Assembly: GCA_040222995.1 (NCBI GenBank)
Contig: JAVKBW010000008.1
Span: forward strand, 12,729 to 76,728
Length of the DNA stretch: 64,000 nt
Reading direction: 5' to 3'
From: Alphaproteobacteria bacterium
Lineage (GTDB): Bacteria; Pseudomonadota; Alphaproteobacteria; UBA8366; Aestuariispiraceae
Under the pieces are notes generated by a model. That model did no database searches, had not been told where the DNA came from, and worked only from the letters and a program-made list of their open reading frames with translations. The first letter of the stretch is position 1; every line of letters begins with the position of its first letter. The translations under genes and the position numbers were made by a program. This document shows, piece by piece, positions 7,766-64,000 of the stretch.

Positions 7766-7920
7766 ATGTCACGCGAGCGGATGGCGCCGAAGCGCCGGCT
7801 GCCGAAAGAAATACCCTGTTCCGGCTTACTCCTTCAGCCTCCCGGCCGGACCCGACGATGGCGCCCCCACCGCCATCGCCTGTACCAGAGACGCCCTGCC
7901 CCGATGGCGTGACGGTACAC

Positions 7921-7958
7921 AGCGACGCTGCTTTCCCCGAGCGGCGTCGCTTCTTTTC
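7921..7958 (+). terminator. Possible intrinsic terminator between convergent GGDEF and fliJ genes
   Basis: An 8-bp stem (AGCGACGC / GCGTCGCT) with a 15-nt loop, followed by TCTTTTC. Confidence 0.3.
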
Positions 7959-7968
7959 AGGATACAGG

Positions 7969-8379
7969 CTATTTCTGGCGATGGGCCTGCAGGCCGACCT
8001 CGTCGAGCACCGCCTGATCCTTCCTGTCCAGATCCTGCCTGTCGGCCTCATCGCGCCGGTCTTTCGTGATTTCGTATTTTTTCTGTTCCTCGAACGCTTC
8101 GGCAAGCTGATCGCGCGCCTGATCGACATAAGGCTGCAACGCCTCGAGCTGCTTTTCCATCGTGGTTCGGTCCGCCTTTGCCCTGGCGGCATACTGGCCG
8201 AAAACAGGGCCGAGATCCGGCGTTTCCGAGGCAACCTTGCGCTCGTGTTCAACGCTCGCTTCCAGCGCGTCGATGCGGCTTTGCACGGCATCGACCTGGG
8301 CCATGACCTCGGCCAGCACCCGGCGTTTGTCATCGACATTGAACTTGGCGAGACGCACCAGTGTCTTCAGCGTTTTCAT
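7969..8379 (-). CDS. fliJ: Flagellar export chaperone FliJ
   Basis: 136-aa, highly charged coiled-coil protein (MKTLKTLVRLAKFNVDDKRR...) immediately downstream of fliI. Confidence 0.7.
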   Translation of the reverse strand: MKTLKTLVRLAKFNVDDKRRVLAEVMAQVDAVQSRIDALEASVEHERKVASETPDLGPVFGQYAARAKADRTTMEKQLEALQPYVDQARDQLAEAFEEQKKYEITKDRRDEADRQDLDRKDQAVLDEVGLQAHRQK

Positions 8380-8382
8380 GGA

Positions 8383-9759
8383 TTACGATCCGGTATTCGG
8401 TTCCGGTGGCGCTTCATCGGTCTCGCCGTAGGACATGTCCAGAATCTCCGCCAGCCTCATATAGCCGGATTCCAGATCGGCCTGCTCATCCTTGCCTTGA
8501 CCGATGAATTCATCAAGTTGGGGGTAGTAGTGAATGGCCTGATCGACCGTCGGGTCCGATCCCTTGCGGTAGGCGCCGAGGCGGATCAGCTCCGCCATGT
8601 CGTCATAGGCGGACAGCAACTGGCGCGCCTGATTGACCAGGGTATTCTGATCCTCGTTATTGCAGGCCGGCATCGACCGGGAAACCGAGCGCAGGATGTT
8701 CACCGCCGGATAGCGGTTACGGTGCGCGATCGTGCGGTCCAGTACGATATGGCCGTCGAGAATGCCGCGTACCGCATCGGCAATCGGTTCGTTGTGGTCA
8801 TCACCTTCGACCAGCACCGTGAACAGGCCGGTGATGCTGCCGTTGCCGGTGCCCGGCCCGGCCCGTTCGAGCAGACGCGGCAGTTCGGCGAAAACCGTCG
8901 GCGTGTACCCCTTGCTGGCCGGGGGTTCGCCGGCGCTGAGCCCGATTTCCCGCTGCGCCATGGCGAACCGGGTAACGCTGTCCATCAGGCACAAAACGTC
9001 CTTGCCCTGATCGCGGAAATATTCGGCGACCGCCATCGTCATATAGGCGGCTTCACGGCGCATCAACGCGGATTCGTCGGACGTGGCGACCACGACGACA
9101 CTGCGTTCCAGACCGTCCGGTCCCAGTTCGTCCTGAATGAATTCCTGCACCTCCCGGCCACGTTCGCCGACCAGTCCGATGACGATAACTTCGGCGCTGG
9201 AAAACCGCGCCATCATCGACATCAGGATCGATTTCCCGACACCCGAGCCGGCGAAAATACCCATTCTCTGACCGAGGCAGCACGTCGTAAATGTGTTCAG
9301 ACACCGCACGCCGAGGTCGATCTTGCCGCCCAGCCGGTTCCGCGCATGAGCGGGCGGCGGCTGGTTTCTCACCGGATAGGGCTGCTCGCCCCGCGGCAAC
9401 GGCACACCGCCGTCCAGCGGTTCGCCGAACGCATTGATGACACGGCCCAGCCATCCGTCATGCGGTCGGACGACGGGTTCGGAATCGATCAGCTCGGCAT
9501 CGCATCCCTGCCCGACGCCGATCAGTTGCCCGTACGGCATCGCCAGCGCCAGCCCGTCGCGAAAGCCGACGACTTCGCAGCGCACCCGCTTGTTGCCGCG
9601 CGCCACAAGGTTGCACCGGTCGCCGATCGACAAATGGCTTGAAACGCCGCCGATTTCCACCAACATGCCTTGAATGGCGGCAACGCGGCCGACGATTCGC
9701 GTCGCCGGCATCCGGTCAAGATCGGCGTTCAGACCTTCCAGGGCGTTTGACAGACCCAT
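8383..9759 (-). CDS. fliI: Flagellum-specific type III secretion ATPase FliI
   Basis: Walker A GSGVGKS, Walker B VLCLMDSVTR, and an F1/FliI-type C-terminus. I chose the ATG at 9759 (MGLSNALEG...) over the track start at 9846. Confidence 0.9.
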   Translation of the reverse strand: MGLSNALEGLNADLDRMPATRIVGRVAAIQGMLVEIGGVSSHLSIGDRCNLVARGNKRVRCEVVGFRDGLALAMPYGQLIGVGQGCDAELIDSEPVVRPHDGWLGRVINAFGEPLDGGVPLPRGEQPYPVRNQPPPAHARNRLGGKIDLGVRCLNTFTTCCLGQRMGIFAGSGVGKSILMSMMARFSSAEVIVIGLVGERGREVQEFIQDELGPDGLERSVVVVATSDESALMRREAAYMTMAVAEYFRDQGKDVLCLMDSVTRFAMAQREIGLSAGEPPASKGYTPTVFAELPRLLERAGPGTGNGSITGLFTVLVEGDDHNEPIADAVRGILDGHIVLDRTIAHRNRYPAVNILRSVSRSMPACNNEDQNTLVNQARQLLSAYDDMAELIRLGAYRKGSDPTVDQAIHYYPQLDEFIGQGKDEQADLESGYMRLAEILDMSYGETDEAPPEPNTGS

Positions 9760-9857
9760 CGCGTATTTCCGCGCTCCGTTGGAAATGAAAGCAGAACCTA
9801 ACGCGACTCGCGTTCCTGTGCGAGCAATACCGCGCCGAATCGGCAAAAATCAACCGG

Positions 9858-9865
9858 TTAACCAT
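9858..9865 (+). promoter_or_regulatory. TTAACCAT (CtrA 8-mer type) motif in the fliI/ctrA divergent intergenic region
   Basis: Exact TTAACCAT 131 nt upstream of the ctrA ATG (9996) and about 100 nt from the fliI start. Confidence 0.4.
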
Positions 9866-9995
9866 GATTATCAATTCTGGATATATTCTGATACCCTGTA
9901 TCGGGACCTTGCCGACGGGCGGCGGCAATCTATAATTGTTAAGGTATTCCGGTAAGGGATTGGGTTCTGGAACCTGTGATGTGGGACCAAGTGTG

Positions 9996-10718
9996 ATGCG
10001 TATTCTTCTGGTTGAGGACGATCCTTCAACGTCGAAAAGCGTCGAACTGTCGTTGAAGCATGAAGGCTATGTGATCGACGCCGTCGATCTTGGCGAAGAC
10101 GGGCTGGAGATCGCAAAAATCTATGAATACGACCTGATCATTCTGGATATCATGCTACCGGACATGACAGGATATGACGTGTTGCGGCAAATTCGCGCCG
10201 CCCGCCTGAAGACTCCGGTTTTGATCCTGTCCGGCCTTTCCGATCTCGACAACAAGTTGAAGGGGCTCGATACGGGCGCTGACGACTACCTGACGAAACC
10301 GTTCGACCAGCGCGAACTGCTGGCCCGGGTGCAGGCCATCGTGCGGCGGTCGCACGGGCATTCGACATCGGAAATCACCTGCGGTCCGCTGGTCATTCAT
10401 CTCGACCAGAAAACCGCCGAAATAAACGGCGAAGCCGTACCGCTGACCGGCAAGGAATATGGCATTCTGGAATTGCTGGCCCTGCGCATGGGGGTGACGC
10501 TTACCAAGGAAATGTTCCTCAACCATCTGTATGGCGGGATGGACGAGCCGGAAGCCAAGATTGTCGATGTCTTTGTCTGCAAGTTGCGCAAGAAGCTGTC
10601 GAAAGCGTCATCCGGCATCAATTTCATCGAAACCGTCTGGGGGCGCGGGTACGTGCTGCGGGAACTCGACAAGTCGCCCGACGATGTGGCCGAGACGAAA
10701 AAACTGAAACGCGCCTGA
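9996..10718 (+). CDS. ctrA: Cell-cycle master response regulator CtrA (OmpR family)
   Basis: [25 protein letters not shown]...[52 protein letters not shown]...[12 protein letters not shown] is nearly collinear with Caulobacter/Brucella CtrA. Confidence 0.92.
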
Positions 10719-50073: not shown

Positions 50074-52356
50074 TTAGCCTCCTATATTCTCCGCGATCCG
50101 GTCGCGGAATTGATTGAAGTTCACCCCGTGGCGGACGTGATATCCGCCCCGCTGGTACTTTGCGAGTTCGCCTTCGATAGCCTGAATACGTCCGAGCAGA
50201 TCATCCGCCGGTAGCCCCATGGCGACCTCCTCATTGTAGGTGATCAACAGGGCATCCCGTCGCTGCCTTAGCTCTTCGGCGTTCTCATCTTCACCGGCCC
50301 ATAGCTCCAGGTCTTCTTCCGGTATCAGACACTGCCGAAGCGGGAGCCGTTTGAGCTCCTCGACGTTGAACCGAGCACCGGCAACCATTGAAGCCTCATC
50401 GACCGACAAGATGTCCTGGAAAGCTGCAACGGCGTAGCTGAGCGCATCCACGATGTCGTCGTTCTTCAGCCCTCGCCCGTCATATTTAACGCCCGTCAAC
50501 TGGTTCACGAAATCGACGCCGTGCTCTGGATCGGTCAGAACGCCCCGGCAAACCAAGACCCGACCGGATGCAAAGGCCGGGGCAAGGGTTTCGATGATTC
50601 GCCGCCCCTTTCGCTGCTTACCAGTTGTCACCGGGTCCACTTTGATCGGGTAGCCGCGCCGGGCCGTCTCTCCTGCAAGCTGGGAAGCGAACAAGCCGTC
50701 CTTTTCCTGCTCGACCAGAATACGGTTAGCCTTGTGCTCAACGATGATCCGGGCACATTCCTGGATGGCCGCGCCGGTCGAGTGAGCCCGTACACCAATG
50801 GCCCGCCGAATGATCACCCTGCCGCCAGCGGTGGATGAGACAATCGACAAACCAATGGCATCACCCTTTCCGACCAACCCGCCAGCCGGGTCTACGGCTG
50901 CGACAGTCTGGACATAAGGCTTACAGTCCTGGGAAGCCTCCGACACGCCATGCCAATTGTCGCCTTCTTCGGCATGGCCCTTTGGGAGACCTTGGAGAAC
51001 GTCTCCACCCCCACGGATCACAATCGGGGCCGACATTGAGCCCGGCTCGATATCGACAACCGGCAACGAGGCAATCTTGATCGGGCGCTCGTTGGTCGCC
51101 GCCTGTGTCAGGTCGATCCGCCAGTGAAGCGCGAACAACCTGGTGGACATCTTCCGCTTTCTGCTTTCGATGTCCGCTGCCGAGAAACGGTCCGGCCAGC
51201 GGCTATGGAACACTTCCTTGCCATCCAGGATATCGGAATCGAACAGGCAAGCCCGGTGCTCATCCCAGGAGCCCTCTTCCACAAGCCGACCATACAGTGA
51301 CATCTCAGACTGAGGCGTCCCGAGAACCACGACGCGGCTGTATGGATCAGGCACAAGCACGTTATGCGCTTCCGAGATTTGATCCTGCAGCTTGTCGATT
51401 GAGTCGGCTGTGTCGTGCTTCGGCGTCTCCACATCATCCAAGATGATAAGTCGAGCCCGTTTGCCGGTAATCTGCCCAGTGATGCCAATTGAACGGAAGC
51501 TGACGGACATGCCCAGCTTTCCAGAGGCCGGACCAACGACAAAGCTGGAGGCGTTATCCGGGTCTTCGTCTTCGGGCCTCAGGTCTTCCAATACCGGGGA
51601 CCACTCGATGAACCCTCGGACCATCCGCAACATGTCACGCGCATGGCTTTCTCCCTGGGAGACGACAAGGATGGTCTCGTTCACCGGGTCGCGCCATAAA
51701 CGCCAAAGCGCATAGAAGGCCGTATAGGTCGATTTGGCTGAGCCTCGGGACGCAAGGATGAGGATATCCCGCTCCTTCGACAGCAGCCCCGAGACGATGT
51801 CGTCGTGAATTACACCCGGCTCACGCCATCCCGGCAACAAAGGCCGAATGACAGCATGAACGAAGGTCCAGAATGCAACACGCTCATCGGTCATGAGACC
51901 GCCGCCCGCCGGGTCCGCCCGCATCAACGTTGCCGCCTTTATTGCCGACAGCAATTCAGCCTTACGGGCCAGATCGGGCCGGTTCTGTTCGGACAGGCGC
52001 GTCAGTTCCGAAACCGCCTCACTGACCTCGGTTACGAATGCCTCGGTTTCCCGATAGGGATGAGCTGTGAACGGGGGAACCAGTACCGGCTTGCCCTTGC
52101 CCGGCTTGTTGCGGATTTCGTTGTTCGGTTTCGGCTTGTTGCGGGCCGCGCCACCTTGACAGCTTCGGCAGGTCGTATGCCAGCCGGTCTTGCTTTTGTT
52201 CAACGGTGAGAACGTTTCGTGGCCCAGGGGCTTAACCTCGCCACACGTATCGCACTCGTACGGTTGGCCCAGGTAGGCTTGTGCGGTGGGGCTAACTTTG
52301 GTCGCACCGGTAGCGTTTCGGGTGCCCATGAAGGCACCCTTCGTCGTTTTGGACAT
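50074..52356 (-). CDS. terL: Phage terminase large subunit with N-terminal zinc-ribbon/basic extension
   Basis: Walker A ILASRGSAKST and Walker B ARLIILDDVE. The RNaseH-like nuclease carries AAVDPAGG...GDAIGLSIV and DDIVDALSYAV. The N-terminal about 170 aa carry CDTC...CRSC and a lysine/arginine-rich tract. Confidence 0.85.
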   Translation of the reverse strand: MSKTTKGAFMGTRNATGATKVSPTAQAYLGQPYECDTCGEVKPLGHETFSPLNKSKTGWHTTCRSCQGGAARNKPKPNNEIRNKPGKGKPVLVPPFTAHPYRETEAFVTEVSEAVSELTRLSEQNRPDLARKAELLSAIKAATLMRADPAGGGLMTDERVAFWTFVHAVIRPLLPGWREPGVIHDDIVSGLLSKERDILILASRGSAKSTYTAFYALWRLWRDPVNETILVVSQGESHARDMLRMVRGFIEWSPVLEDLRPEDEDPDNASSFVVGPASGKLGMSVSFRSIGITGQITGKRARLIILDDVETPKHDTADSIDKLQDQISEAHNVLVPDPYSRVVVLGTPQSEMSLYGRLVEEGSWDEHRACLFDSDILDGKEVFHSRWPDRFSAADIESRKRKMSTRLFALHWRIDLTQAATNERPIKIASLPVVDIEPGSMSAPIVIRGGGDVLQGLPKGHAEEGDNWHGVSEASQDCKPYVQTVAAVDPAGGLVGKGDAIGLSIVSSTAGGRVIIRRAIGVRAHSTGAAIQECARIIVEHKANRILVEQEKDGLFASQLAGETARRGYPIKVDPVTTGKQRKGRRIIETLAPAFASGRVLVCRGVLTDPEHGVDFVNQLTGVKYDGRGLKNDDIVDALSYAVAAFQDILSVDEASMVAGARFNVEELKRLPLRQCLIPEEDLELWAGEDENAEELRQRRDALLITYNEEVAMGLPADDLLGRIQAIEGELAKYQRGGYHVRHGVNFNQFRDRIAENIGG

Positions 52357-52373
52357 TATTTCTCCTTAGAAGT

Positions 52374-52400
52374 AAAAAACCCCAAGGATGATCCTTGGGG
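52374..52400 (-). terminator. Intrinsic terminator downstream of the PEP-CTERM gene, 18 nt before the TerL start codon
   Basis: A 9-bp perfect stem (CCCCAAGGA/TCCTTGGGG) with a 3-nt loop is followed on the minus strand by TTTTTT. Confidence 0.6.
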
Positions 52401-52540
52401 TTCAGAGTGATGGGACATCGAGCCGCTTATTTACGCAATGCGGGCTCAATCAATAAAGGGATCATCTAACTGCTTTTGATCCTGAGCAGACAAAAGAAAA
52501 GGCCCCGCAGGACCCCTTCAACAAACAGTGAGCAAACTGT

Positions 52541-53239
52541 TTAAGCCGTATTTGGTCGTCTCAACCTGAGAAGCCCGAAACCTACTAGAGCCGTGGCTAG
52601 GAGTGGCAAAGCCGCTGGCACAGGAACTAGTGTTGGACTGTCATCTGAGGCTAACTGCAACGATATGTTATCCAGTGCTGAAGCTTCCGCAATCTCAGTG
52701 ATTTGGGAAAACGATGATATATCCAAGGGAACAAAATCGCTAAGAGCTACTGCAAACCTAACTTCATCGAAACCATTGAGATCAAACAGACCAAGGACTT
52801 GGGGAAGGGTGCCCATATCAAAAAGCCCAGAATCTGCGACAATGCCATTGTTCAATGTTTGCCAGAATCCTCGGTGTGCATCTAGAGGGTTATGCCCCGT
52901 GCCAATATTAAACTCTATGCCGACCATTTTTGCGTTGTCGGCAGTAGCGACTGAAATAAAGTTCCCAGCAGAACCTGTATATACAAAGTTCCCGCTTAAC
53001 CCGAGAAATCCGGCGTGGGTGTTACAGATGGTACCAGTTTGGCAAATAAGTTGTGTTGAGGTATCACGTGAAATCGCAATACCATTTTCTTCGAAACTAA
53101 GGCTCGTCATATTATCCAGATTAGTGGATCGATCTACAGAAAATACAGCAGATCCCGAACCAAATGTCTGCGTCGCCGCACTAGCTTGACCAACAAACAT
53201 CCCAAGAAGTGTCAATGCTCCAATAACCAATTTCCACAT
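52541..53239 (-). CDS. Secreted protein with C-terminal PEP-CTERM/VPLPA-CTERM-type sorting signal
   Basis: The signal peptide is MWKLVIGALTLLGMFVGQASA. The C-terminus VPVPAALPLLATALVGFGLLRLRRP has a Pro-rich motif, a TM helix and a basic tail. The gene is about 45% GC by eye. Confidence 0.7.
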   Translation of the reverse strand: MWKLVIGALTLLGMFVGQASAATQTFGSGSAVFSVDRSTNLDNMTSLSFEENGIAISRDTSTQLICQTGTICNTHAGFLGLSGNFVYTGSAGNFISVATADNAKMVGIEFNIGTGHNPLDAHRGFWQTLNNGIVADSGLFDMGTLPQVLGLFDLNGFDEVRFAVALSDFVPLDISSFSQITEIAEASALDNISLQLASDDSPTLVPVPAALPLLATALVGFGLLRLRRPNTA

Positions 53240-53537
53240 GATGCTTTCCACTCTTATAATTTGCAAAATCATAAAATTTATCTCCCATAACTATATATAA
53301 GGAGATTGTGCAGTGCTGCTATCAATAGGTGCATTTGCAATATCAACCTGCGGTATGATTGTCGACCACCATTGACTGAAACGTTATGGAGTCACAAAAC
53401 CTTAATTATATCAGTTGTCTCAGTTGCTGATTGTCCGTTGTTGGCACATACCGAACCAATGTCGATTCATCAGTTGATGTCCTAAGATAAGAGATAAGCG
53501 GACATTGCCGTACAATGCCCGCTCTCTCTGTTTGAGT

Positions 53538-54401
53538 TTAACTCCTTACAACAAGCCCATCGTGATAGACTGACGGGTTGTTGCGCTTCAGCGTCTCCCA
53601 GGCATTCGGATCGACTTCGATTTCCCGACCGTCAATCCTGACCTTCATCGGCCCGGCGCTCTTGGAGCCGGATTGCCCGCTGGACACTTTCGCGTATTGC
53701 TGTGCCCAATCAGTGAAGGCGCTGGCATCGCCAGCCCGGATAGCCTGAAGCCCGGCTGCCGTAATGGCGTGTCCGCCGAACTGCTGTCTGGCCCAATCCC
53801 AGAAACCCTGGTGATCCTCAATGCCCGCAACCTTGGTCACCAACTCGTTGATCGACGCCTCGACGTCTCCATAGACCTGTTGGGCCTGTTGCAGAAACGC
53901 CGCCGGGTCGATTCCATTGGCCCGCGCCATCTCCACTGCCGACTCCGGCAGTTGCGACGGGTCCGTCAGAAACTCGGACATGATCTGCGTTCCCGCACCC
54001 TTCCCAAGCTGGGCATCGAAGGCGGGCAACCAATCCTGTAGAGCGTCGGACGTGCTGTCGGCCACCTCAAGGTCGCCTTCCGGCTCCTGCTGGTGATCGG
54101 ACTCCGCCCGCTCACTGGGGCGCTGATCCTCAGGTGTATCCGTATAGACACCCTGGGAGTCCTTATGGACATACCCATGGCGCTCCGCATCGCCCAGACG
54201 CATTGAGACGCCCTGGACGGTCACGATATCGTCGCCCGTCGCTTCTCGCCCGGCAATCGCCGCCCCGGTCTGATCGGTCGCGGTTGCCATGATGTCGCCG
54301 CCCCGGCGTACCGAGCTCGGGCTTGGGTCCACGAATTGCCGGGTCGGCTGTTCGTTGGACCGGATCGTTACGTCCGTCTGTGGTGTGTTTTCGTTTGTCA
54401 T
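53538..54401 (-). CDS. Hypothetical protein (288 aa, acidic, phage-context)
   Basis: Long ORF with an ATG at 54401 and coding-like composition. I recognised no motif. Confidence 0.5.
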   Translation of the reverse strand: MTNENTPQTDVTIRSNEQPTRQFVDPSPSSVRRGGDIMATATDQTGAAIAGREATGDDIVTVQGVSMRLGDAERHGYVHKDSQGVYTDTPEDQRPSERAESDHQQEPEGDLEVADSTSDALQDWLPAFDAQLGKGAGTQIMSEFLTDPSQLPESAVEMARANGIDPAAFLQQAQQVYGDVEASINELVTKVAGIEDHQGFWDWARQQFGGHAITAAGLQAIRAGDASAFTDWAQQYAKVSSGQSGSKSAGPMKVRIDGREIEVDPNAWETLKRNNPSVYHDGLVVRS

Positions 54402-54482
54402 TGAATTCTCCTTGTAGTTGGTCAAACGAAAAGCGGCCCAACTAGGGGCCACTCATCGTCTGTGTCGTTGATGTGTTTTGGT

Positions 54483-54683
54483 TTAGTTGCCGATCAGTGT
54501 TCCCAGGTTCCCGACAACGCTGCCGCCATCCGGTGCCGTGCGTGGGGACCGAACAGCGTTCTCTTTGACACCGTCCAGATTTCCGTCATTGCCGATAAGC
54601 TGGAGGGCCGTAATGTCGCCCGAGGCAGAATCGACGTGAACCACATAGGCCTTGTCGTTGTGCTCATAGATGAATTTGGTCAT
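54483..54683 (-). CDS. Hypothetical small protein
   Basis: 66-aa ORF whose start overlaps the stop of the upstream ORF by 4 nt. Confidence 0.4.
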   Translation of the reverse strand: MTKFIYEHNDKAYVVHVDSASGDITALQLIGNDGNLDGVKENAVRSPRTAPDGGSVVGNLGTLIGN

Positions 54684-55227: not shown

Positions 55228-57015
55228 CTATTTCACAAAGGCTTTTGTCCGGCCCTCTTTGAGCGTCTCTATATCCAGGAACTCGACAGCCGTTCGAACC
55301 TGCACGTTCCTTAGCAACCGCCCAAAGTTTTGACCCGACAACCCGAGAGTGGTCCGAGCCTCTGCGAATGTCAGTCGGTGCCCAGGGCTTAGCGCCTCGA
55401 GCATGGAAACGAATTGATCCGCGTTTGTGATGGTCTTCGGTTTCTCCTGTACGGAACTCGGCTTCCAGAGCCTTATGTTGGCCCCTGGGAACCACGTCGG
55501 CAGGGCCTTTTCGATTCCGGTCTTGGGCAAAGCCATGATCCAGGCATTGCAGGGGCGGCAGTCGCCTCTGTCGGGCAGACGTGCAGACGCCCGGCAAAGT
55601 GCCTGTAGAATGTGGTGCCCGAGTTCCCCAAGGCGAACCTTGGACCGATCTGCGGTCAGAACCTTACGATCCGGCTGCAGTTCCGCAGACGCCCGTTTCA
55701 TCGCTTCATAGTCGTTGTCCGAATAGAACAGCGTCCCGGCCAGTATCACGTTTTCACAGCCAACAAAGTCGTTGGTTGCGGTATGCCTACCCCAATTCAG
55801 GAAGGCGACGTTTTCCGGTCGCGACAGCCTCTCCCTCAGCTTTCGGGGAATATCGGGCACACCCCCGTCACGGCGTCCAATCCGACTGGCCTTGTGGTGA
55901 ACGACCAGCCACTTTTCGGTCGGCTTGGATTCGATGAGTTCTGCTATTCCGCTCAGGTATGCCTCGCTATTGTCGGGCCGCTTCCAGGCGGTCTTGGAAC
56001 CGGACGCCCGCCAAACGGATATCGTCAGGTTCTCATAGGTCTTGTAGGCACAGGGAAGCCGCTCAACACGCCCCAGCCGCTCCTGGTCGGCATATTGCTG
56101 GCGAATTCTGCCGGATGCATCGGTGACCACCACCGGATAGATATCGTCCGGCAAAGTCGGCCTGAAGTGAACCTTGGCGACCTCGCCTCCATTCTTGCTG
56201 ACATGAACATTCTTTCCCGATATCGCGGCCAAATCCAGGAACGACTCCGCAGAAAGACCGGTGCCGCGTTCACCGGACAGGTATTCGTCAACATCGGTTG
56301 CCCCCAGGGAGCCGACCCAGTGCGGGAACTGCATTGAACCGCCGTCCTGCCACGAGTCCAAATCCGACCTTACTTGCGCGAGCAAATCAGCCGCCTCCTC
56401 TTCGTACTTCCTGGAGAGGGCACCTATGGCTTGGCCCAGGGACCGCTTGTCGATTTTAATGCCACGAGTAACGGAGAAGGTTTCGTCCCATACTCTCAGC
56501 TTTCGTGACTGTCCCCGGTAATCCAGCTCCCAGGCATCGGACATCCGGCGTCCTTTGGTCATTCGCCGGACCCGCTCGTGCGTTGTCAGGAGAATAGGCC
56601 GATATTCCAGGTTGTCCGACTTTTCCTTTTCGAACGCCTTGTTTCCGGCAACCCAAATTCCGATCCTGCTTTGGTGAATACCCATCGCCAACAGTTGGTC
56701 CCGGAAGTCGTGCGCCTGTTGGATGCGTTCGACGCAGATCAATGCGCCTGGGTGCCGTCCATCCGAACGATCCCGATGTACCGGCTCCAGAGCCGCCAAA
56801 TAGCTGCTGATCGCTGTCGTCTTGCCGACGCCCGGATCGAGGCTGCTGAGGTAAGCGACGTTATCGGCTTCACCATTGGTTATCCGGTCGAACGTTTGGA
56901 TGAGTGATTGAAGGGCGGACCATTGGTCGGACGCCAGAGACGCGCCACGGTCATTCATGGCGGCACGTAGTTTATTCATGGCCGCACGGGCGACCGGCGA
57001 CAGTTCCGTATTCAT
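55228..57015 (-). CDS. P-loop NTPase, helicase-like (putative replication/mobilisation protein) with C-terminal wHTH-like tail
   Basis: Walker A LDPGVGKTT and Walker B/DExx-like LRVWDETF. The ATG at 57015 has an AGGAG SD. The family was not identified with certainty. Confidence 0.65.
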   Translation of the reverse strand: MNTELSPVARAAMNKLRAAMNDRGASLASDQWSALQSLIQTFDRITNGEADNVAYLSSLDPGVGKTTAISSYLAALEPVHRDRSDGRHPGALICVERIQQAHDFRDQLLAMGIHQSRIGIWVAGNKAFEKEKSDNLEYRPILLTTHERVRRMTKGRRMSDAWELDYRGQSRKLRVWDETFSVTRGIKIDKRSLGQAIGALSRKYEEEAADLLAQVRSDLDSWQDGGSMQFPHWVGSLGATDVDEYLSGERGTGLSAESFLDLAAISGKNVHVSKNGGEVAKVHFRPTLPDDIYPVVVTDASGRIRQQYADQERLGRVERLPCAYKTYENLTISVWRASGSKTAWKRPDNSEAYLSGIAELIESKPTEKWLVVHHKASRIGRRDGGVPDIPRKLRERLSRPENVAFLNWGRHTATNDFVGCENVILAGTLFYSDNDYEAMKRASAELQPDRKVLTADRSKVRLGELGHHILQALCRASARLPDRGDCRPCNAWIMALPKTGIEKALPTWFPGANIRLWKPSSVQEKPKTITNADQFVSMLEALSPGHRLTFAEARTTLGLSGQNFGRLLRNVQVRTAVEFLDIETLKEGRTKAFVK

Positions 57016-57228
57016 ACTGTTACTCCTGTGTGGATGTGAATTGGTCTCCACGCAGGACTACAAAGACAGGGCCCGCCTCACCGGTTTGAACCGATGAAAC
57101 GGGCCGCTTTCACAACCTACATGGAGAATGCCCTGGCTGATCGGGCCAAGGAGACGACAGAGAGAAGTTTGATGTGATCAGGCCGTGCAGGACTTATTGG
57201 ACACGGCGCTCCGACACTGTCGGGCAAC

Positions 57229-57591
57229 TCATGTACTTCTCCCCTTCACAGTGCGTCCATTAGGTGTTACGCGGGGATAGAAACGAGTTAGCCGCTCGAT
57301 ATACCGCAGCTTGAACTGCATGGCTTTCTGACCGGTGTAACCCATGACCAAAACCGTGAACCCATCTTTGGTCATGTCATAGGCGGGATACTCTCGGACC
57401 CCAAAACCGGTCGGGCGAGTGAATGTTGTTCGCAGGAACAGCCCCTCACCTAGGTCTCCAGATTTGGAGATCAAGTCGTCAATGTCTCGTACCACATGCG
57501 TGTGCTGTTTCCCAAAGAACTCCGCAACGTCCTTACTGTTGGCGAACACGACGTTGTCCTTAACGTGTACTACTGGCTGAATGTCCTTCAT
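57229..57591 (-). CDS. Rha-family phage regulatory protein
   Basis: VVFANSKDVAEFFGKQHTHVVRDIDDLI...YDMTKDGFTVLVMGYTGQKAMQFKLRYIERL matches the Phage_pRha pattern. Confidence 0.8.
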   Translation of the reverse strand: MKDIQPVVHVKDNVVFANSKDVAEFFGKQHTHVVRDIDDLISKSGDLGEGLFLRTTFTRPTGFGVREYPAYDMTKDGFTVLVMGYTGQKAMQFKLRYIERLTRFYPRVTPNGRTVKGRST

Positions 57592-58592: not shown

Positions 58593-59255
58593 CTAGCCTT
58601 GCAGAACCCGCTTCACCTGTTGCGGGTGCCAGCGACCCCCTCGGGCAGACGGAATGCCCCTTTCGTTCAACTCATTAGCGATGGCCCTAAGCGAGCTCGC
58701 TCCACGCGAGCGAATATCGTCAATGATCGGTCGAAGGTCTGCCCAGCGTTCTCGAGCGTTCTGTTGGGCCTTGGTTGTCCCCAGGGCTCGCCCCTTAACC
58801 GCCGCCGCCTCCGACAAGTTCCCAGGAGAGCCCAGCGTCTTACCCCGAGCCTTCGCCGCCCGAAGGGCCGCTTTGGTCCGTTCCGATATCATCCGACGCT
58901 CCTGCTGAGCCACGACCGCCATAATGCCTACCGTCATTTCGTTGGCTTCTGGCAGATCGGCAGCAACGAACCGGGTCTTGCTGTTCTGGAGTGTCAGTAG
59001 AAATGCCGCATCTCTGGAGAGCCGGTCCAACTTCGCCACAACGAGCGTTGCTCCGTACAACCGACAAGACCGAAGCGCGGCATCCAACTTAGGTCGGGCA
59101 TTGTTTCCGCCGCGTTCGACCTCGGTGAACGCGTCCACGATCTCCCAGTCTTTGCCATTCACATAGTCCGACACGGCTGCTTGCTGTGCCTCCAGGCCCA
59201 GGCCCGACCTGCCCTGCCGATCCGTCGAGACCCGATAGTATGCAACGTATTTCAT
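58593..59255 (-). CDS. Serine recombinase (resolvase/invertase family)
   Basis: YYRVSTDRQ is the catalytic Ser motif, followed by LVVAKLDRLSRD and a C-terminal HTH (SLRAIANELNERGIPSARGGRW). The ATG at 59255 has a GGGAG SD. Confidence 0.88.
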   Translation of the reverse strand: MKYVAYYRVSTDRQGRSGLGLEAQQAAVSDYVNGKDWEIVDAFTEVERGGNNARPKLDAALRSCRLYGATLVVAKLDRLSRDAAFLLTLQNSKTRFVAADLPEANEMTVGIMAVVAQQERRMISERTKAALRAAKARGKTLGSPGNLSEAAAVKGRALGTTKAQQNARERWADLRPIIDDIRSRGASSLRAIANELNERGIPSARGGRWHPQQVKRVLQG

Positions 59256-59507
59256 CTGTCCGCTCCCTGTGAACGCTGGTTTACTGGATTGTGACAGAGA
59301 TATTGAGTCGGATAGCCAACAGATCAAGAAGAAATGTGCCCGGCATTCCAATCGATTCTCAGCGCCGCTGCGGAGTCCACTGGCGAGCCTCGGGCTATCT
59401 CGAGTCCCTTCGACCGGCTGGATACTAGATGCGCTCTGTGACTCTTAAAATCGATCCTAGGGGCATTCCAGCTTTCTCTTGTTCTCTTATTGTTCTATTG
59501 TTTGGCC

Positions 59508-59696
59508 ATGCCAGATCGATCCATCCCCATCGAAGAACAGACGCTGCGTGACGCCCTTCTGTTGCTGCGATCCCCCAAGCCTGGGTTGCCCGCCGATACC
59601 GAGATCAGGCGACGAACCATCAGAACCATTGAAGCGGCCTTAATGGGAGCCTGGGGATCATCCCAGGAGACTGCAAAGAAAAACTCAAAGGAATAG
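59508..59696 (+). CDS. Possible small ORF (62 aa)
   Basis: ATG at 59508. There is no motif and it may not be coding. Confidence 0.25.
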   Translation: MPDRSIPIEEQTLRDALLLLRSPKPGLPADTEIRRRTIRTIEAALMGAWGSSQETAKKNSKE

Positions 59697-59928
59697 AGGG
59701 GTGCCCCCACGGGGGAAATGCATATCGCGCTCGGGAGAAACTGAGACATTGTGGATGCAGATTGGCACCCCATTATTAAAACGACAGTAGGCCAAGAGAA
59801 CTAACTGAGAGCAACTCCAACAGCTTTCTGGCCCTAAGACAGGCGATGATAACTACCTGTTGGATGTGTCAAGCTTGTAGGAAGAATGTTAGTTCGTAGG
59901 GAGAAAAACCAAAAACACAGAAGAAAAT

Positions 59929-59940
59929 CTAACAAATAGG
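59929..59940 (+). repeat. Left arm of a perfect 12-bp inverted repeat bracketing the two-gene cassette
   Basis: CTAACAAATAGG, whose exact reverse complement occurs at 62702-62713. Confidence 0.8.
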
Positions 59941-60022
59941 TGAATCTGTTATCCTTCACAAAGTGCATCGCTATGGATTTGTGTATAAAAGGTGTAGCTA
60001 AGCAGCACCGTTTCGCAAAAGC

Positions 60023-61075
60023 TTGAATCTAGAATGGCTACGATTGCGCTCCAAGCCTCGTATCTCCATAGTATTCGTGGAGGATGAATTGAGCACATAT
60101 CTTGATATCGCCAAAAACGTCTTGCGGGCAAACCGACGCCCTATGAGTGCGAAATCAATACTAAACGCGGCCTACGACGCGGGTGTAGTTCCCTCTCACT
60201 TGTATGGCAAAACCCAACACAAGACTCTTCAGGCCCGCCTAAGCGAGGACATTCTCCACCACAGAGAGACATCAGCGTTTTACAGGACTGAGCCAGGACA
60301 ATTTGCATTGGTCGAGTTTCTGGAAGATCCAAACATCGCGGAAGAATGGAAAAAAAAGTTTCCGGCACGAAGACGCACACGCGATCTCAAAAAATATAAC
60401 GCCCTTGGCGTAAAGCGCTCTATCGCCCTCGCCCTTCACAATAGCACCACCTCATTTGGAAACTTCTTTAGCCAAACAGTCGCAGACGACGCAGTGGTCG
60501 CGATGCATCCGGACCTTATGGAAGATAGAGGTTATTGTTCTATGTGGACGTTCTCCGTTGTCCATAAGGATAATCAGGTACTAGCCTATCGAGTTGGCCA
60601 ATATCGCGATGATCGAGACGCTTTCGCTAACAAACGTTCAATAGGATTTCCTGGGGCGTTAGGTGCCGACGATTTATCACTCTTCTCGGAGGACTCCTTT
60701 GGTGCAGAAGAGTGCGCAATTTCTGTTCTGCAGCAAGACCTTGACCTATCACTAGCTGCTTTTGATAGATCAGATTCTCAAAGACCTAAGATCGATAGTG
60801 TGATGGCAGTATCTGGACTCGGCGGAAACCTCGAGTTGGTAATTGTGCTCTTGTGGAACTGCCCAAAATGGTTTGAACCCGTCACCAGACGGCTTTCTCT
60901 AAACAATCCAGAGTGGTTGCATCTTGAAGCTAGACACAACAACATAGAAGACTTCGAGCCGTGGAGCGTACAGGTTCTTGAACGGCTAACCGAAGCAACC
61001 AGGCGGGCAAACATTGGCAACTCGCAGGATTACCACTCAACAATCGGCGTTTCTGAGATTCGAGCTCGAGAGTAG
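60023..61075 (+). CDS. HARE-HTH domain protein with uncharacterised C-terminal domain
   Basis: Residues about 23-99 (LSTYLDIAKNVLRANRRPMSAKSILNAAYDAGVVPSHLYGKTQHKTLQARLSEDILHHRETSAFYRTEPGQFALVEF) fit the HARE-HTH winged-helix pattern (GKTP..TL.A.L..DI...F.R...G.F.L). The start is ambiguous: TTG 60023, GTG 60077, or TTG 60089 after GGAGGA. GC is about 45%. Confidence 0.7.
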   Translation: MNLEWLRLRSKPRISIVFVEDELSTYLDIAKNVLRANRRPMSAKSILNAAYDAGVVPSHLYGKTQHKTLQARLSEDILHHRETSAFYRTEPGQFALVEFLEDPNIAEEWKKKFPARRRTRDLKKYNALGVKRSIALALHNSTTSFGNFFSQTVADDAVVAMHPDLMEDRGYCSMWTFSVVHKDNQVLAYRVGQYRDDRDAFANKRSIGFPGALGADDLSLFSEDSFGAEECAISVLQQDLDLSLAAFDRSDSQRPKIDSVMAVSGLGGNLELVIVLLWNCPKWFEPVTRRLSLNNPEWLHLEARHNNIEDFEPWSVQVLERLTEATRRANIGNSQDYHSTIGVSEIRARE

Positions 61076-62696
61076 GGACGCGAGGCGCGAAAAGGTTGCG
61101 CTTCAGACAATATGCCAATTGTACCGTTGCGGTTATCACTTCACACCTGAAGACAAGCGTGGGTTTGAAATGCAAACCGCCGGCCTTGTCATGAATTCCA
61201 ACGATAACAAGGTGGTTCGTTGGTGTTTAAACACTATAGCTCGCATTGGAACCAAAGAAGGAACTTTAGGGAGTGTAAGAATAACTCTCTCGAAGTACGA
61301 ATCGGACCCCGAAATAGTTGCATCTGCGGTCGCAGCTCTAGCTCATTTGTTTCATGGTGACATTTCAACAGTTTCAGAAGTATCAGACATCCGACCTGAG
61401 ACTCGGACATTAGCTGCGATGCAAATTGTTGGCCCTAGAGTCACCGGTTCCGCAGATTTACGAATCGATATTGAGACGGCTGATATCGAGGTCATTAAAT
61501 TAGCCCTCATAGTGATTGGCTTAAACCATGATGTAGAGAACCTTTTTCATCCCCGACATAAAAATGGGGAGTTGATTCGAGCACTTGGCAGCCATGACGA
61601 TCCAATCGTCCGCCAATATGGTGTTTGGGCAATTATCGAGAACGACTCGCTTGGTCCACAGCATTTAGGCGTACCATTGGAGCGCCTTGAATATGAACCG
61701 CCGAACGTACAAGCCAAGCTTCTGCAACTTGGCAGCACTGCCATAAACGATTTCGAAATGAAACAAGAGTTCATATTGGCTGGTAGCAATCTCGAATCTA
61801 TCGACGCAAGGGAGGGCTTAGCAAAAGGGCTGCTCTCAGAGTTTTATGATGGTCTCCAAGATATAACCGTGCCTTGGATGGGAGAAGAGGCTAGCAATCG
61901 CGTTCGCCTGTTATTAGCAGAGCATATGGCGCGATACTCTGAAGAAGTGCCGACATACTCAGAAGAAGCGCTGAGGTTAGCCAACGAAAGTGCAGACTTC
62001 CGTGAACGTATACTTCTAGGAGCTGAAGGACGTCCTCTCTATGGCAAAATCCAAAGGATGTCCGATTCAATGTCTCCGGGGCTCTTCGATGATAGCGCTG
62101 ACCCGATGCGAGCTAAGTTAATTAGAAATACAAAAGAAGAAGCTACGACCAAAGTACTGATGTTGAATGCATCTCCTGATGATGAAGAACGGATACGAGT
62201 CGATATCGAAGGCCGTGATGTTCAAGAGGCCTTAGAATTAATAAGGACACCCAAAAGGCTTATCGAAATTACTCAGAGGCACGCAAGCCGCCTAGACCAG
62301 ATACAAAAAGAACTTCTAGCGATATCTCCCAAAATCCTTCATTTTAGTGGCCATGGCGATGAAGACGTTCTCATATTTGAAACACGAGATGGCCAAGTAG
62401 ACCCCCTAGATGGCAGTGTTTTAGCAGACATGATCAAAGCCTATGGTGGACTGGAATGCGTTGTATTGCATTCGTGTTTTAGTCACAGAATTGCATCTGC
62501 ATGTAAGCGAAATGTGCAATTCGTTATAGGCTCAACAAGAGAAGTTGACGATACGACAGCATCTGGTTTTAGCCGCGCCTTTTATCAGGCACTCGCTTAC
62601 GGAAGGACTTATAAGAATGCGTTTGATATGGGCGTTATTGAAGTGAAGGCCGTAAGCGCAGCGGCTGCAGGTGCGTACATTTTTTTGGACTCGTGA
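61014..62696 (+). CDS. HEAT-repeat protein with C-terminal minimal CHAT/caspase-fold peptidase domain
   Basis: The N-terminal about 300 aa contain repeated D..VR/A-helix HEAT-like units (NDNKVVRWCLNTIARIG, SDPEIVASAVAALAHL, HDDPIVRQYGVWAI, ASNRVRLLLAEHMARY). The C-terminal domain reads KVLMLNASPDDEERIRVDIEGRDVQEAL...ILHFSGHG...CVVLHSCFS...VIGSTREVDDTTASGFSRAFYQAL. It has a His (codon 62352-62354) and a Cys (62475-62477) spaced as in CHAT/caspase folds. The start is ambiguous (TTG 61014 or ATG 61170). Confidence 0.75.
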   Translation: MATRRITTQQSAFLRFELESRDARREKVALQTICQLYRCGYHFTPEDKRGFEMQTAGLVMNSNDNKVVRWCLNTIARIGTKEGTLGSVRITLSKYESDPEIVASAVAALAHLFHGDISTVSEVSDIRPETRTLAAMQIVGPRVTGSADLRIDIETADIEVIKLALIVIGLNHDVENLFHPRHKNGELIRALGSHDDPIVRQYGVWAIIENDSLGPQHLGVPLERLEYEPPNVQAKLLQLGSTAINDFEMKQEFILAGSNLESIDAREGLAKGLLSEFYDGLQDITVPWMGEEASNRVRLLLAEHMARYSEEVPTYSEEALRLANESADFRERILLGAEGRPLYGKIQRMSDSMSPGLFDDSADPMRAKLIRNTKEEATTKVLMLNASPDDEERIRVDIEGRDVQEALELIRTPKRLIEITQRHASRLDQIQKELLAISPKILHFSGHGDEDVLIFETRDGQVDPLDGSVLADMIKAYGGLECVVLHSCFSHRIASACKRNVQFVIGSTREVDDTTASGFSRAFYQALAYGRTYKNAFDMGVIEVKAVSAAAAGAYIFLDS

Positions 62697-62701
62697 CCCC
62701 G

Positions 62702-62713
62702 CCTATTTGTTAG
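62702..62713 (-). repeat. Right arm of the 12-bp inverted repeat
   Basis: CCTATTTGTTAG begins 5 nt after the stop codon of the HEAT-CHAT gene. Confidence 0.8.
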
Positions 62714-62816
62714 CTCGGCACAGTAGATGAGAACGTTTATTGCAACAGCGGGATGTGGGTTCTTTAGAAGAACTTTGTTGTAAATCTACAGACATGCCAA
62801 CACATCATGATCTACA

Positions 62817-64000
62817 TTAAAAAATTCGATGCAACATGCTCTTCGCGTATGCTTCAAAGCCTAATTTCAGCCGTCGCTTTTCGGGGCCACTCGAATATAT
62901 ATCTGTGAGTAACTTCCCCGAACTATGCCCCATCATCCGATCTTTCATCACAGGATCGATGTCCTCAATGTTCTCTAGGACTGTCGCCGCCCACCGTCGA
63001 ATGCTATGAAGGTCAAGGCCCTGCGCCTTCGCTTCTGGTATGGCCTCAGCGAGTGTCGCTCTCATCCTTTTAGATACTGAGTGACCGAGTTTCTGGTCCT
63101 GTCCCCCTGGCCTCAGTTCTTCGAAGAGCTGATCATCTGGCCGTTTGCCAATAGTTCGGCGTTCCAGGATTTCCTGGGACCGCTCCGACAGAAAGAAAAC
63201 CACTCGGTTGCCAGACTGGGTCTTGGCATCTTTGATGTGGACCTCGCCACCATCATGCACGTCGCGAACACGGAGTTCACATATCTCGTTGAGTCGACAC
63301 CCACTTTCAACGAGCAGCAGCCCGATATCATACTCCTCCGGTCGTGAGTTCTGCTTGCGCTTAAGTGCCTCAAGAAAGGTTTTGAGCTCCTCATCTGAGA
63401 ATGCCCGTTTTCTTCTCTTTGTCTTCTTCAATTCCCCGGTCAGACCCGAGAACGGTGACAGGCCGTCACAGTACTCCCTGCGGCGCGCCCATTTCCACAT
63501 CAGGTCCAAAGCACCGATGTACCGACCAAGGGTCCTTGGAGAACGCCCTGAGGGCTCCAAATGATCGGACAACCACTTGGTGGCGACCCTGGGAGTGATC
63601 TTGTTCATCATCCGGTCGCCCATCGCATCGACGAACGTGTTCACGGCATGGCGACGGCCATCAATTGTGCCCGCTGTGACCTGCCCTTCTAATGACTTTA
63701 GCCATTCGTCCCTGACCGTGGAAAGCGGAACACCCTTGCCAGTTGCTATCTCATAGTACCTGTGGGCTTCGGTATCATGACCGCGCTCGGCTATGTCTTC
63801 TGCTCTATCTGCGATGATTTCGGTATAAATGTCCTGGCGTTCCTCATCGGGAGCTTCAAGCAACTCATTAAGAGCCGCGACGGCTTCTGAGTTGGAGCCT
63901 GTTCGCTGGAAAACCTGAGCTTCTACCTGCCTGATTATTTCGTCCAGCTTGCCGTGCTTGCGCCGGTTCGCTTCGTCGAGGTCGCGGGTTTTCAGTGTCC
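62817..64000 (-). CDS. int: Tyrosine recombinase / phage-type integrase (N-terminus beyond the window end)
   Basis: The catalytic set is ESGCRLNE (Arg), LHSIRRWAAT (HxxR), MMGHSS (His) and DIYSSG (Tyr). The reading frame stays open from 63863 to base 64000, so the track start (TTG at 63863) is not the real start. Confidence 0.88.
   Translation of the reverse strand, partial: TLKTRDLDEANRRKHGKLDEIIRQVEAQVFQRTGSNSEAVAALNELLEAPDEERQDIYTEIIADRAEDIAERGHDTEAHRYYEIATGKGVPLSTVRDEWLKSLEGQVTAGTIDGRRHAVNTFVDAMGDRMMNKITPRVATKWLSDHLEPSGRSPRTLGRYIGALDLMWKWARRREYCDGLSPFSGLTGELKKTKRRKRAFSDEELKTFLEALKRKQNSRPEEYDIGLLLVESGCRLNEICELRVRDVHDGGEVHIKDAKTQSGNRVVFFLSERSQEILERRTIGKRPDDQLFEELRPGGQDQKLGHSVSKRMRATLAEAIPEAKAQGLDLHSIRRWAATVLENIEDIDPVMKDRMMGHSSGKLLTDIYSSGPEKRRLKLGFEAYAKSMLHRIF

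Follow-up and report, generated by a model that had tools for sequence, protein, structure and literature searches.

A credible, apparently undescribed two-gene sensor-effector defence module predicted in Alphaproteobacteria: a HARE-HTH protein with a Nudix-like fold paired with an ARM-CHAT protein

Two overlapping genes in a low-GC segment

We analysed a 64,000-nucleotide stretch of DNA, referred to here as the window, from an alphaproteobacterial metagenome-assembled genome (MAG; assembly GCA_040222995.1, contig JAVKBW010000008.1, positions 12,729 to 76,728 of the forward strand), in which two genes on the same strand, g1 and g2, lie between a serine recombinase and an integrase. An earlier note, made from the sequence alone, had proposed these two overlapping, low-GC genes as a candidate conflict or defence module. 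The open reading frames (ORFs) were recovered where it had placed them, with an overlap of 62 nt (61014-61075), and the G+C content (GC) of the pair is 0.473 compared with 0.611 for window positions 1-48000 and 0.556 for 48-60 kb. Judged from sequence comparison and structure models, the pair is a credible, apparently undescribed two-gene sensor-effector defence module: each of the checks on the proposal that could be done in silico came out favourable, and the reading is extended here by a predicted Nudix fold in g1 and by the apparent swapping of effector domains in relatives of g2. The genes and their parts, all on the + strand, are as follows.

60089..61075, + strand, g1, HARE-HTH and Nudix-fold protein, 328 amino acids from TTG 60089 (mechanical ORF 60023..61075, 350 amino acids)
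60079..60084, + strand, GGAGGA, Shine-Dalgarno-like sequence read from the sequence, 4 nt 5' of TTG 60089, role inferred
60095..60316, + strand, HARE-HTH winged helix of g1, ORF residues 25-98, Pfam PF05066
60359..60388, + strand, basic linker FPARRRTRDL of g1, ORF residues 113-122, joining the HTH to the Nudix-like domain
60395..61021, + strand, predicted Nudix-fold domain of g1, ORF residues ~125-333, with a non-canonical Nudix box
61014..62696, + strand, g2, ARM/HEAT-CHAT protein, 560 amino acids, TTG start
61014..62066, + strand, ARM/HEAT alpha-solenoid of g2, residues 1-351, all-helical
62067..62141, + strand, disordered linker of g2, residues 352-376
62142..62693, + strand, CHAT (caspase-fold) domain of g2, residues 377-560, alpha/beta, Pfam PF12770
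62352..62354, + strand, codon of the predicted catalytic His447, motif HFSGHG, invariant, aligned to SAVED-CHAT H375
62475..62477, + strand, codon of the predicted catalytic Cys488, invariant, aligned to SAVED-CHAT C422

The residue numbers of g1 are those of the mechanical ORF from 60023, in which residue 23 corresponds to residue 1 of the homologues. The true start of g1 is very probably TTG 60089, because the homologues begin at this position with M-D/S-S-Y-L-D-I-A, because ATG, GTG or TTG stands there in 36 of 36 distinct loci (35 related loci and the window), and because GGAGGA lies directly upstream. Conservation in g2 extends over the first 50 residues among homologues with lengths of 557-566 amino acids (F13, E17, R25, K27, L30, Q31, Y37, R38), and TTG 61014 is therefore taken as the real start. 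The deposited annotation of the MAG contig (RIM72_00405, RIM72_00410) shortens g1 to 255 amino acids, which drops the HARE-HTH, and g2 to 508 amino acids, which drops two conserved N-terminal helices. Several database homologues are shortened likewise, so that the family is hidden from domain-based surveys.

Domain architecture of g2

The AlphaFold2 model of g2, built with 25 homologues, has a mean predicted local distance difference test score (pLDDT) of 85.8 and consists of three parts, namely the solenoid (pLDDT mostly >90), the linker (pLDDT <50) and the C-terminal alpha/beta domain. Residues 385-536 match the Pfam CHAT family PF12770 (E=6.9e-7, 29.4 bits against a cut-off of 24), as do most g2 homologues, and Pfam HEAT_2 matches were found in g2 relatives. 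In a Foldseek search of the PDB, the top match was the activated SAVED-CHAT filament 8tl0 (best chain E=1.8e-9), of which chains C and D gave 26% identity and a root-mean-square deviation of 2.8-2.9 Å over ~190 columns; importin-alpha and designed armadillo proteins followed with E=8.7e-6 to 1e-3. The family profile of g2 also detects the 8tl0 sequence with E=1.3e-23. The linker carries a conserved (D)LF(G/D) motif, in which F358 is invariant and L357 nearly so among the 25 homologues.

H447 and C488 are invariant in the same 25 homologues and align with residues 355 and 402 of the 8tl0 chain, which with an offset of 20 correspond to H375 and C422, the catalytic dyad of SAVED-CHAT defined experimentally (bioRxiv 10.1101/2023.06.23.546230). 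These comparisons bear out the earlier description of g2 as a HEAT/ARM array joined to a minimal C-terminal CHAT domain with an intact His/Cys dyad, and the C-terminal domain was modelled as a caspase-like fold, the feature on which that description could have failed. We conclude that the CHAT domain of g2 is a predicted caspase-like cysteine protease domain with an intact dyad, for which proteolysis is the expected activity.

Domain architecture of g1

The homologue search with g1 returned 519 matches. Its N-terminus matches Pfam PF05066 (E=1.3e-8, 35.5 bits against a cut-off of 25.9), and residues 26-96 are modelled as three helices followed by a beta-hairpin, a winged-helix fold, in agreement with the HARE-HTH that had been assigned from the sequence. 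The basic linker that follows is strongly conserved: F113, A115, R116, R117, R118, R120 and L122 are invariant in 24 homologues, D121 is nearly so, and linkers of the FPARRRTRDL type are kept in the g1 partners of related ARM proteins that carry other C-terminal modules (the PNP and short-tail classes described below). The linker may be a peptide that binds the ARM solenoid or DNA.

The remaining ~230 residues had been called unassigned by the earlier note, a statement that holds for sequence families, with no match in Pfam, NCBIfam, PADLOC or PHROGs, and that has to be revised for structure. The model of g1 (mean pLDDT 79.4, predicted template modelling score 0.74) gave a C-terminal domain for which the best 50 Foldseek matches listed in the PDB are all Nudix-family proteins, with TM1382/3e57 first (E=3.9e-6, template modelling (TM) score 0.62-0.68), followed by RppH, Ap4A hydrolase, Dcp2, NudC and NUDT15. 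The viral structure library BFVD likewise gave Nudix. Sequence-level searches lent no support: Pfam NUDIX did not match g1 at E<=1, the PDB sequence-profile search with the domain gave a single chance match (E=0.14), and hhalign of the g1 family against E. coli MutT, for which an approximate query sequence was used, gave a probability of 0.16 with a topologically sensible alignment. The assignment of the domain to the Nudix fold is thus one of predicted fold.

The domain retains 'ANK..IGFPG', which resembles the start of a Nudix box, and the family consensus runs FPGA...VLxQDLDLS, with VLxQDLDLS at the position of the catalytic helix. In the statistically non-significant MutT alignment, D239 is the acidic counterpart of a single REUXEE glutamate, and invariant leucines stand at the other two of the three positions. 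The canonical box GX5EX7REUXEEXGU with its catalytic glutamates appears to be missing from g1, and the domain is therefore filed as a Nudix fold and not as a Nudix hydrolase. By analogy with the NrtR regulators, it may bind a nucleotide rather than hydrolyse it. R190, R195, R198, D217, D239, D241, E285 and D310 are invariant or nearly so, and D196 and D197 are present in at least 90% of the sequences; since so many charged positions are near-invariant, other residues could serve catalysis.

A more distant g1 relative on the Zymomonas mobilis plasmid pZZ6.01 (L083:4178-4999) shares the HARE-HTH (40% identity over 94 residues) and has a Lys-rich linker. Its C-terminal half of ~170 residues is different and does not align with the Nudix-like domain, which indicates that this domain is dispensable to the family.

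Neither g1 nor g2 matched any of the 5027 models of PADLOC-DB 2.0.0 (2023 models) at the threshold of E<=1, in keeping with the earlier note, whose reader did not recognise the pairing as a named defence system. No paper describing the g1-g2 pair was found in the searchable full-text literature, and the paper on ATP nucleosidase effectors does not mention it (bioRxiv 10.1101/2023.01.24.525353).

Co-inheritance and distribution of the pair

Co-occurrence of the two families had been named as a check that the pair should withstand. Among 185,579 species representatives, with one genome per species, we found 28 loci with full-length g2 orthologues, all in Alphaproteobacteria, and in 28 of 28 a g1 gene lies directly upstream on the same strand (a contig end cuts g1 in two of them). 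Three partial copies were considered as counter-examples and rejected, as L029 lies at a contig end, L030 is rearranged and L031 has an IS21-like insertion. In L031 (Sulfitobacter sp. PS-8MA, 7655-9881), the IS21-type element, with IstA-like and IstB-like ORFs, cuts g2 and leaves the CHAT part alone; this copy is an example of decay of the module.

When the ORFs lying up to 10 kb from the pair were clustered all against all for 33 loci, g1 and g2 (plus their antisense shadow ORFs) emerged as the only conserved families. No conserved third gene was present in the 33 loci, and the extra CHAT genes seen beside the pair in L093 and on a Ti plasmid of Agrobacterium are not a general feature of the loci. 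The junction between the two genes is typically a stop-start overlap of 1-4 nt or a gap of a few bases; a longer overlap of tens of nt is common to the window and its closest relatives, with 62 nt in both the window and L001. Across 25 loci, the identity of g1 to its window counterpart is correlated with that of g2 to its own (r=0.86). The divergence of the two genes has run in parallel, and they move as a unit from one genomic site to another, unrelated one.

Full-length copies of the pair are present in five plasmid records, and two IMG/VR contigs carry it. No full-length homologue was found among 50,697 phage records and neither protein has a PHROG match, results which together rule out that g1 and g2 are typical phage genes.

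Exchangeable modules after the ARM solenoid

ARM-domain relatives lacking CHAT were found on Zymomonas and Paracoccus plasmids, each downstream of a HARE-HTH gene. A search of 1.84 billion cluster representatives with a profile of the ARM part alone (E<=1e-3) gave 370 clusters. Among the 123 clusters with a complete C-terminal boundary of the ARM part, in which the following modules were counted, 96 carry a short tail of up to ~150 residues, 16 carry CHAT and four carry a module of ~330 residues. This last module is PNP_UDP_1 (E about 1e-12 to 1e-16) and matches the PADLOC CBASS 'PN-superfamily' effector model with E down to 5.5e-17; the same domain type is the ATP nucleosidase effector in CBASS and Detocs (bioRxiv 10.1101/2023.01.24.525353).

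The short tail opens with the DLFG motif that also marks the g2 linker, continues with an Asn/Gly-rich stretch, VTNN..NINGNVQAGA..GGDATNSG (P0255-P0332 class; L085:4953-6440; L083:5016-6479), and ends in helices with a DPSP motif. Its PADLOC matches are weak and confined to PDC-M14B (E about 0.007-0.01), and we found neither a transmembrane-like segment nor a family match in it. As the commonest C-terminal module of the ARM family, the short tail may be a new effector domain.

We inspected the g1 partner in one example locus for each C-terminal class. A HARE-HTH gene is directly upstream in both additional classes, overlapping at the PNP-class locus and 8 nt away at the short-tail locus, and these upstream genes are full-length g1 orthologues (38% and 37% identity, respectively) with Nudix-like motifs. 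g1 and the ARM solenoid thus stay constant in the family, and the domain after the solenoid is exchangeable. A constant scaffold with swapped effectors is independent evidence for CHAT as an effector, and such swapping, as read from the sequences, is the strongest in-silico argument that CHAT is probably the effector of an immune-type module.

Genomic neighbourhoods and the element in the window

The insertion sites of the pair differ between genomes, and in 27 of 27 loci it has a lower GC than its flanks (mean difference 8.8 points). The Filomicrobium locus and one short-tail locus are flanked by housekeeping genes, the Cereibacter locus by transposases and an HNH gene. At the Sinorhizobium meliloti locus, an integrase, VapBC, HEPN and another toxin-antitoxin pair, with PIN, are nearby; toxin-antitoxin genes are also near the Zymomonas plasmid copy. 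Around the PNP-class locus lie genes for an integrase and a resolvase, together with a PDC-S26-like PD-(D/E)XK gene and one for a MADS-like methyltransferase. The densest neighbourhood is that of the Agrobacterium tumefaciens plasmid pTiCFBP5877 (L084, NZ_CP039902.1 49925-64641), where the pair lies in an island of immune-type genes. Upstream, a TIR gene adjoins a Peptidase_C14 caspase gene in a layout like that of type IV Thoeris; downstream are a 361-amino-acid CHAT protein with a PDC-S66-like N-terminus, a 632-amino-acid CHAT protein whose gene overlaps that of a metallophosphoesterase, and a further two ThsB-like TIR proteins.

A second, unrelated CHAT-domain gene is also found in the IMG/VR contig L093, convergent just downstream of g2 (9909-10421, - strand). 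The second CHAT genes near the pair in L093 and on the Ti plasmid may be a coincidence of the kind that arises inside defence islands or may hint at a protease cascade like that of SAVED-CHAT and PCaspase.

The 101 nearest flanking ORFs of 29 loci, which we tallied as counts with no enrichment statistic, included four resolvases, three Mrr-type endonucleases, type I restriction-modification subunits and several transposases, as well as GajB-like UvrD, a DRT reverse transcriptase, PifA, MADS components and ordinary metabolic genes. The expectation of the earlier note that homologues would sit in defence islands or prophage cargo slots was thus borne out in part: integrases, resolvases, transposases, toxin-antitoxin and restriction-modification genes, Thoeris-like TIR genes and caspases do occur in the flanks, and prophage cargo is not the usual home of the pair.

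In the window, the following further features were identified.

58593..59351, - strand, serine recombinase of the resolvase type, Pfam Resolvase, E=2.4e-27
62817..63863, - strand, tyrosine integrase, Pfam Phage_integrase, E=3.1e-10
50074..52356, - strand, phage terminase large subunit, PHROG 38, E=1.8e-71, Pfam terminase domains
57229..57591, - strand, Rha-like phage regulator, Pfam Phage_pRha, E=1.5e-24, PHROG 518

The pair lies between the recombinase and the integrase, with the terminase and the Rha-like gene nearby, and is therefore read as cargo of a phage-derived integrative element. No tRNA or tmRNA that could serve as an attachment site was found in the window. Scanning 59300-63000 for promoters and terminators gave one promoter-like site against 4.7 expected and seven terminator-like sites against 3.4 expected, none of them convincingly placed.

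Other parts of this region are also unusual. The terminase (50074-52356, - strand) has an N-terminal extension before its ATPase and nuclease domains, with weak HNH or endonuclease VII-like PHROG matches (phrog_1035, residues 34-107; phrog_2255, residues 18-83). A second dip in GC is found at 52000-54500, reaching 0.44 at 52.5-53.5 kb, and two ORFs on the - strand there, 52541..53272 (243 amino acids) and 53538..54452 (304 amino acids), match no Pfam or PHROG family. The same is true of the 607-amino-acid ORF 55228..57051 (- strand), which has a GVGKT P-loop-like motif. The low-GC ORFs in 52541..54452 and the ORF 55228..57051 may be further uncharacterised cargo of the same element.

Proposed function and alternative explanations

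We lean, by a little, toward the reading that g1-g2 is a self-contained immune module of the sensor-effector kind, horizontally mobile and acting by abortive infection, not described before. Caspase-family proteases have recently been recognised as bacterial immune executioners in Craspase, SAVED-CHAT, type IV Thoeris and gasdermin systems, and the predicted Nudix-fold domain makes g1 a plausible sensor of a nucleotide or base, which extends the reading of the earlier note. In the mechanism that we propose, g1 and g2 would be co-translated and form a complex in which the protease is inactive, with the importin-like ARM groove of g2 possibly holding the ARRRTRDL part of the g1 linker, which resembles a nuclear localization signal. 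Infection would be detected by g1 by way of DNA bound to the HARE-HTH, of a nucleotide or base occupying the degenerate Nudix pocket, or of both; HARE-HTH and related winged helices of other proteins are described as readers of modified DNA (PMC6591016, PMC11037411). The signal would then be relayed through the ARM scaffold, and oligomerisation would probably align the dyad, as in SAVED-CHAT. The active CHAT domain would cleave host proteins, phage proteins or g1, so that phage replication would stop and the cell would be lost.

Several points weigh against this reading or limit it. The PADLOC models date from 2023, so a more recently named system may cover the pair. Several loci are surrounded by ordinary metabolic genes and have neither a defence gene nor a mobile gene as neighbour, and the pair is not usually prophage cargo, because it is nearly absent from sequenced phages. 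The Nudix domain of g1 could still be an enzyme, as the alignment that indicates the loss of the glutamates is statistically unsupported. Functional statements on any member of the family are computational throughout, the evidence points to no particular trigger, and the sensor role of g1 and the contact between the ARM solenoid and the linker are what we infer.

The best-placed alternative, which we regard as unlikely but deserving attention, concerns g1: it would be an NrtR-like one-component repressor that acts until a nucleotide such as ADP-ribose appears, and the ARM-CHAT protein alone would be both sensor and effector. The locus would then still be a defence module, with the role of g1 alone changed. 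Like NrtR, g1 pairs a DNA-binding winged helix with a Nudix fold whose box seems degenerate. Defence operons commonly start with a regulator gene, ARM/HEAT solenoids typically serve as surfaces for binding proteins, and HEAT-like domains bind phage proteins in other single-protein defence systems. Nudix-HTH repressors have moreover been predicted as ADP-ribose sensors in conflict systems (PMC9503650, section 3.8). A repressor would fit less well with the upstream regions, in which inverted repeats are not in excess (mean arm 5.23 nt against 5.15 nt in shuffled sequences; 120 nt, 35 loci), and with the abutting or overlapping genes, their joint divergence and the retention of g1 across three effector classes, an association tighter than a detachable regulator usually shows. 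The domain order of g1 is also the reverse of that of NrtR, and its HTH is of the HARE type, which in other proteins is linked to DNA-modification sensing (PMC6591016, PMC11037411).

A palindromic operator upstream of g1 was considered and found no general support, as a clear palindrome (GCTACATGCCCG/CGGGCATGTAGC) is present in L082 and L011 alone. In L082 (Sinorhizobium meliloti), the palindrome is perfect, with 12-bp arms, GCTACATGCCCG-A-CGGGCATGTAGC, and lies ~47 nt upstream of g1 over a putative promoter; L011 (Stappia) has a degenerate copy at the same position, and none was seen in the other 33 loci.

The two remaining alternatives are less likely than a repressor role of g1. It is improbable that the pair is a toxin-antitoxin or addiction module with no dedicated anti-phage role, in which g2 would be the toxin and g1, the upstream HTH protein, would neutralise it. 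The layout, with an upstream HTH gene overlapping a downstream effector gene, is that of type II toxin-antitoxin systems, the pair occurs on plasmids and integrative elements beside other toxin-antitoxin pairs, and its GC is low relative to its hosts. However, both proteins are large and combine several domains, with HARE-HTH, Nudix fold and ARM as sensor-type parts, which sets them apart from typical antitoxins, the PNP module of sister proteins belongs to immune systems (bioRxiv 10.1101/2023.01.24.525353), and many chromosomal copies lie between housekeeping genes, where there is nothing to stabilise. Toxin-antitoxin and abortive-infection roles are in any case compatible with each other.

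A housekeeping or regulatory role, such as surveillance of DNA damage or of nucleotide pools with HetF-like regulatory proteolysis, is very improbable: Nudix/MutT-like domains do serve nucleotide sanitation, HetF-type CHAT proteases act in cell differentiation, NCBIfam HetF gave a faint match (E=0.2) and some loci are in metabolic neighbourhoods, but the distribution is patchy (full-length CHAT form in about 30 of 185,579 species representatives), the sites vary, the GC is foreign, plasmids and integrative elements carry the pair about, and the effector is exchanged for a CBASS-type PNP.

Within the reading as an immune module, we put forward, tentatively and with doubt, that the HARE-HTH-Nudix protein and the ARM solenoid might together be a new kind of innate immune sensor that works with no NTPase or second messenger and accepts plug-in effectors. 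Its input might be a feature of invading DNA or an invader-derived nucleotide or base, for example a modified base flipped into the Nudix pocket, much as MutY handles a flipped base with a MutT-like domain. Its outputs might be at least three effectors, namely the caspase-like protease, the ATP nucleosidase-type PNP and the Asn/Gly-rich helical domain. To our knowledge, the known bacterial immune caspase-family proteases are all activated by a CRISPR complex, a cyclic nucleotide or a TIR product. If g1-g2 is an immune system, it would offer a new sensing route to protease-mediated cell death that lacks these known upstream parts. Being compact, with two genes, the family would also lend itself to work on how a single sensor switches on unrelated effectors. 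It provides an annotation model for those genes of Rhizobiales, Rhodobacterales and their plasmids, the Ti plasmids of Agrobacterium among them, that are labelled 'CHAT domain-containing protein' or 'HTH domain-containing protein'.

Comparison with known systems

SAVED-CHAT of the Haliangium ochraceum type III-B CRISPR / CBASS hybrid (8tl0) is the closest solved relative of the protease domain of g2, and in both proteins an N-terminal sensor or scaffold is fused to a compact C-terminal CHAT domain with the His/Cys dyad in register. In SAVED-CHAT, filament formation aligns the catalytic dyad (bioRxiv 10.1101/2023.06.23.546230). The N-terminus of g2 is, however, ARM/HEAT and not SAVED, the PADLOC SAVED_CHAT model did not match, and no cyclase, Cas10, CRISPR array or PCaspase partner is conserved near the pair in the 33 loci. 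As there is neither a SAVED domain nor a cyclase partner, a cyclic oligonucleotide cannot be presumed to be the ligand of g2.

In Craspase (type III-E gRAMP, TPR-CHAT, Csx30), the protease is inactive until its nucleic-acid-sensing partner is triggered, and the substrate is encoded next door. Craspase shares with g2 the fusion of a helical-repeat domain to a CHAT protease, but the repeats of g2 are ARM/HEAT and not TPR, and its partner is a HARE-HTH-Nudix protein. The pair occurs without gRAMP/Cas7-11, crRNA, Csx30 or Csx31 in the 33 loci, and no Cas protein is among the flanking ORFs listed.

Type IV Thoeris combines TIR with a caspase-like protease that is switched on by a nucleotide-derived signal (bioRxiv 10.1101/2024.10.24.620036), and like g1-g2 it is a two-gene module with a caspase-family protease as effector. 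It differs in that g1-g2 has no TIR partner in the module and in that the protease of g2 is of the CHAT type and not Peptidase_C14. On the Ti plasmid, the TIR and caspase genes adjoin each other beside g1-g2, which indicates that these are separate systems. Gasdermin and protease systems were not matched either, as g1 consists of a winged HTH and a predicted Nudix fold and has no PADLOC match.

For g1, the nearest parallel is the NrtR-type Nudix-HTH regulators, which also combine a Nudix-fold sensor with a degraded catalytic box and a winged helix; NrtR itself responds to ADP-ribose and has its operators in front of NAD genes. The differences are that NrtR has the Nudix domain first and the winged HTH last, that the HTH of g1 belongs to the HARE family, that g1 overlaps and is co-inherited with an ARM-effector gene, and that there are no linked ARG, phosphatase or NAD-metabolism genes in the 33 loci and no excess of upstream inverted repeats. 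Nudix-HTH and WYL-HTH sensors have been predicted in conflict systems centred on ADP-ribose (PMC9503650, section 3.8).

The PNP domain, a Cap17-like ATP nucleosidase of CBASS and Detocs, is carried by sister ARM proteins in the place where g2 has CHAT, and CBASS and Detocs follow the same effector-swapping logic as the ARM family (bioRxiv 10.1101/2023.01.24.525353). The HARE-HTH-Nudix and ARM modules differ from these systems in being unrelated to cyclases or two-component kinases. Set beside the known systems, g1-g2 is a new combination, with a new sensor half, that is built from known domain types.

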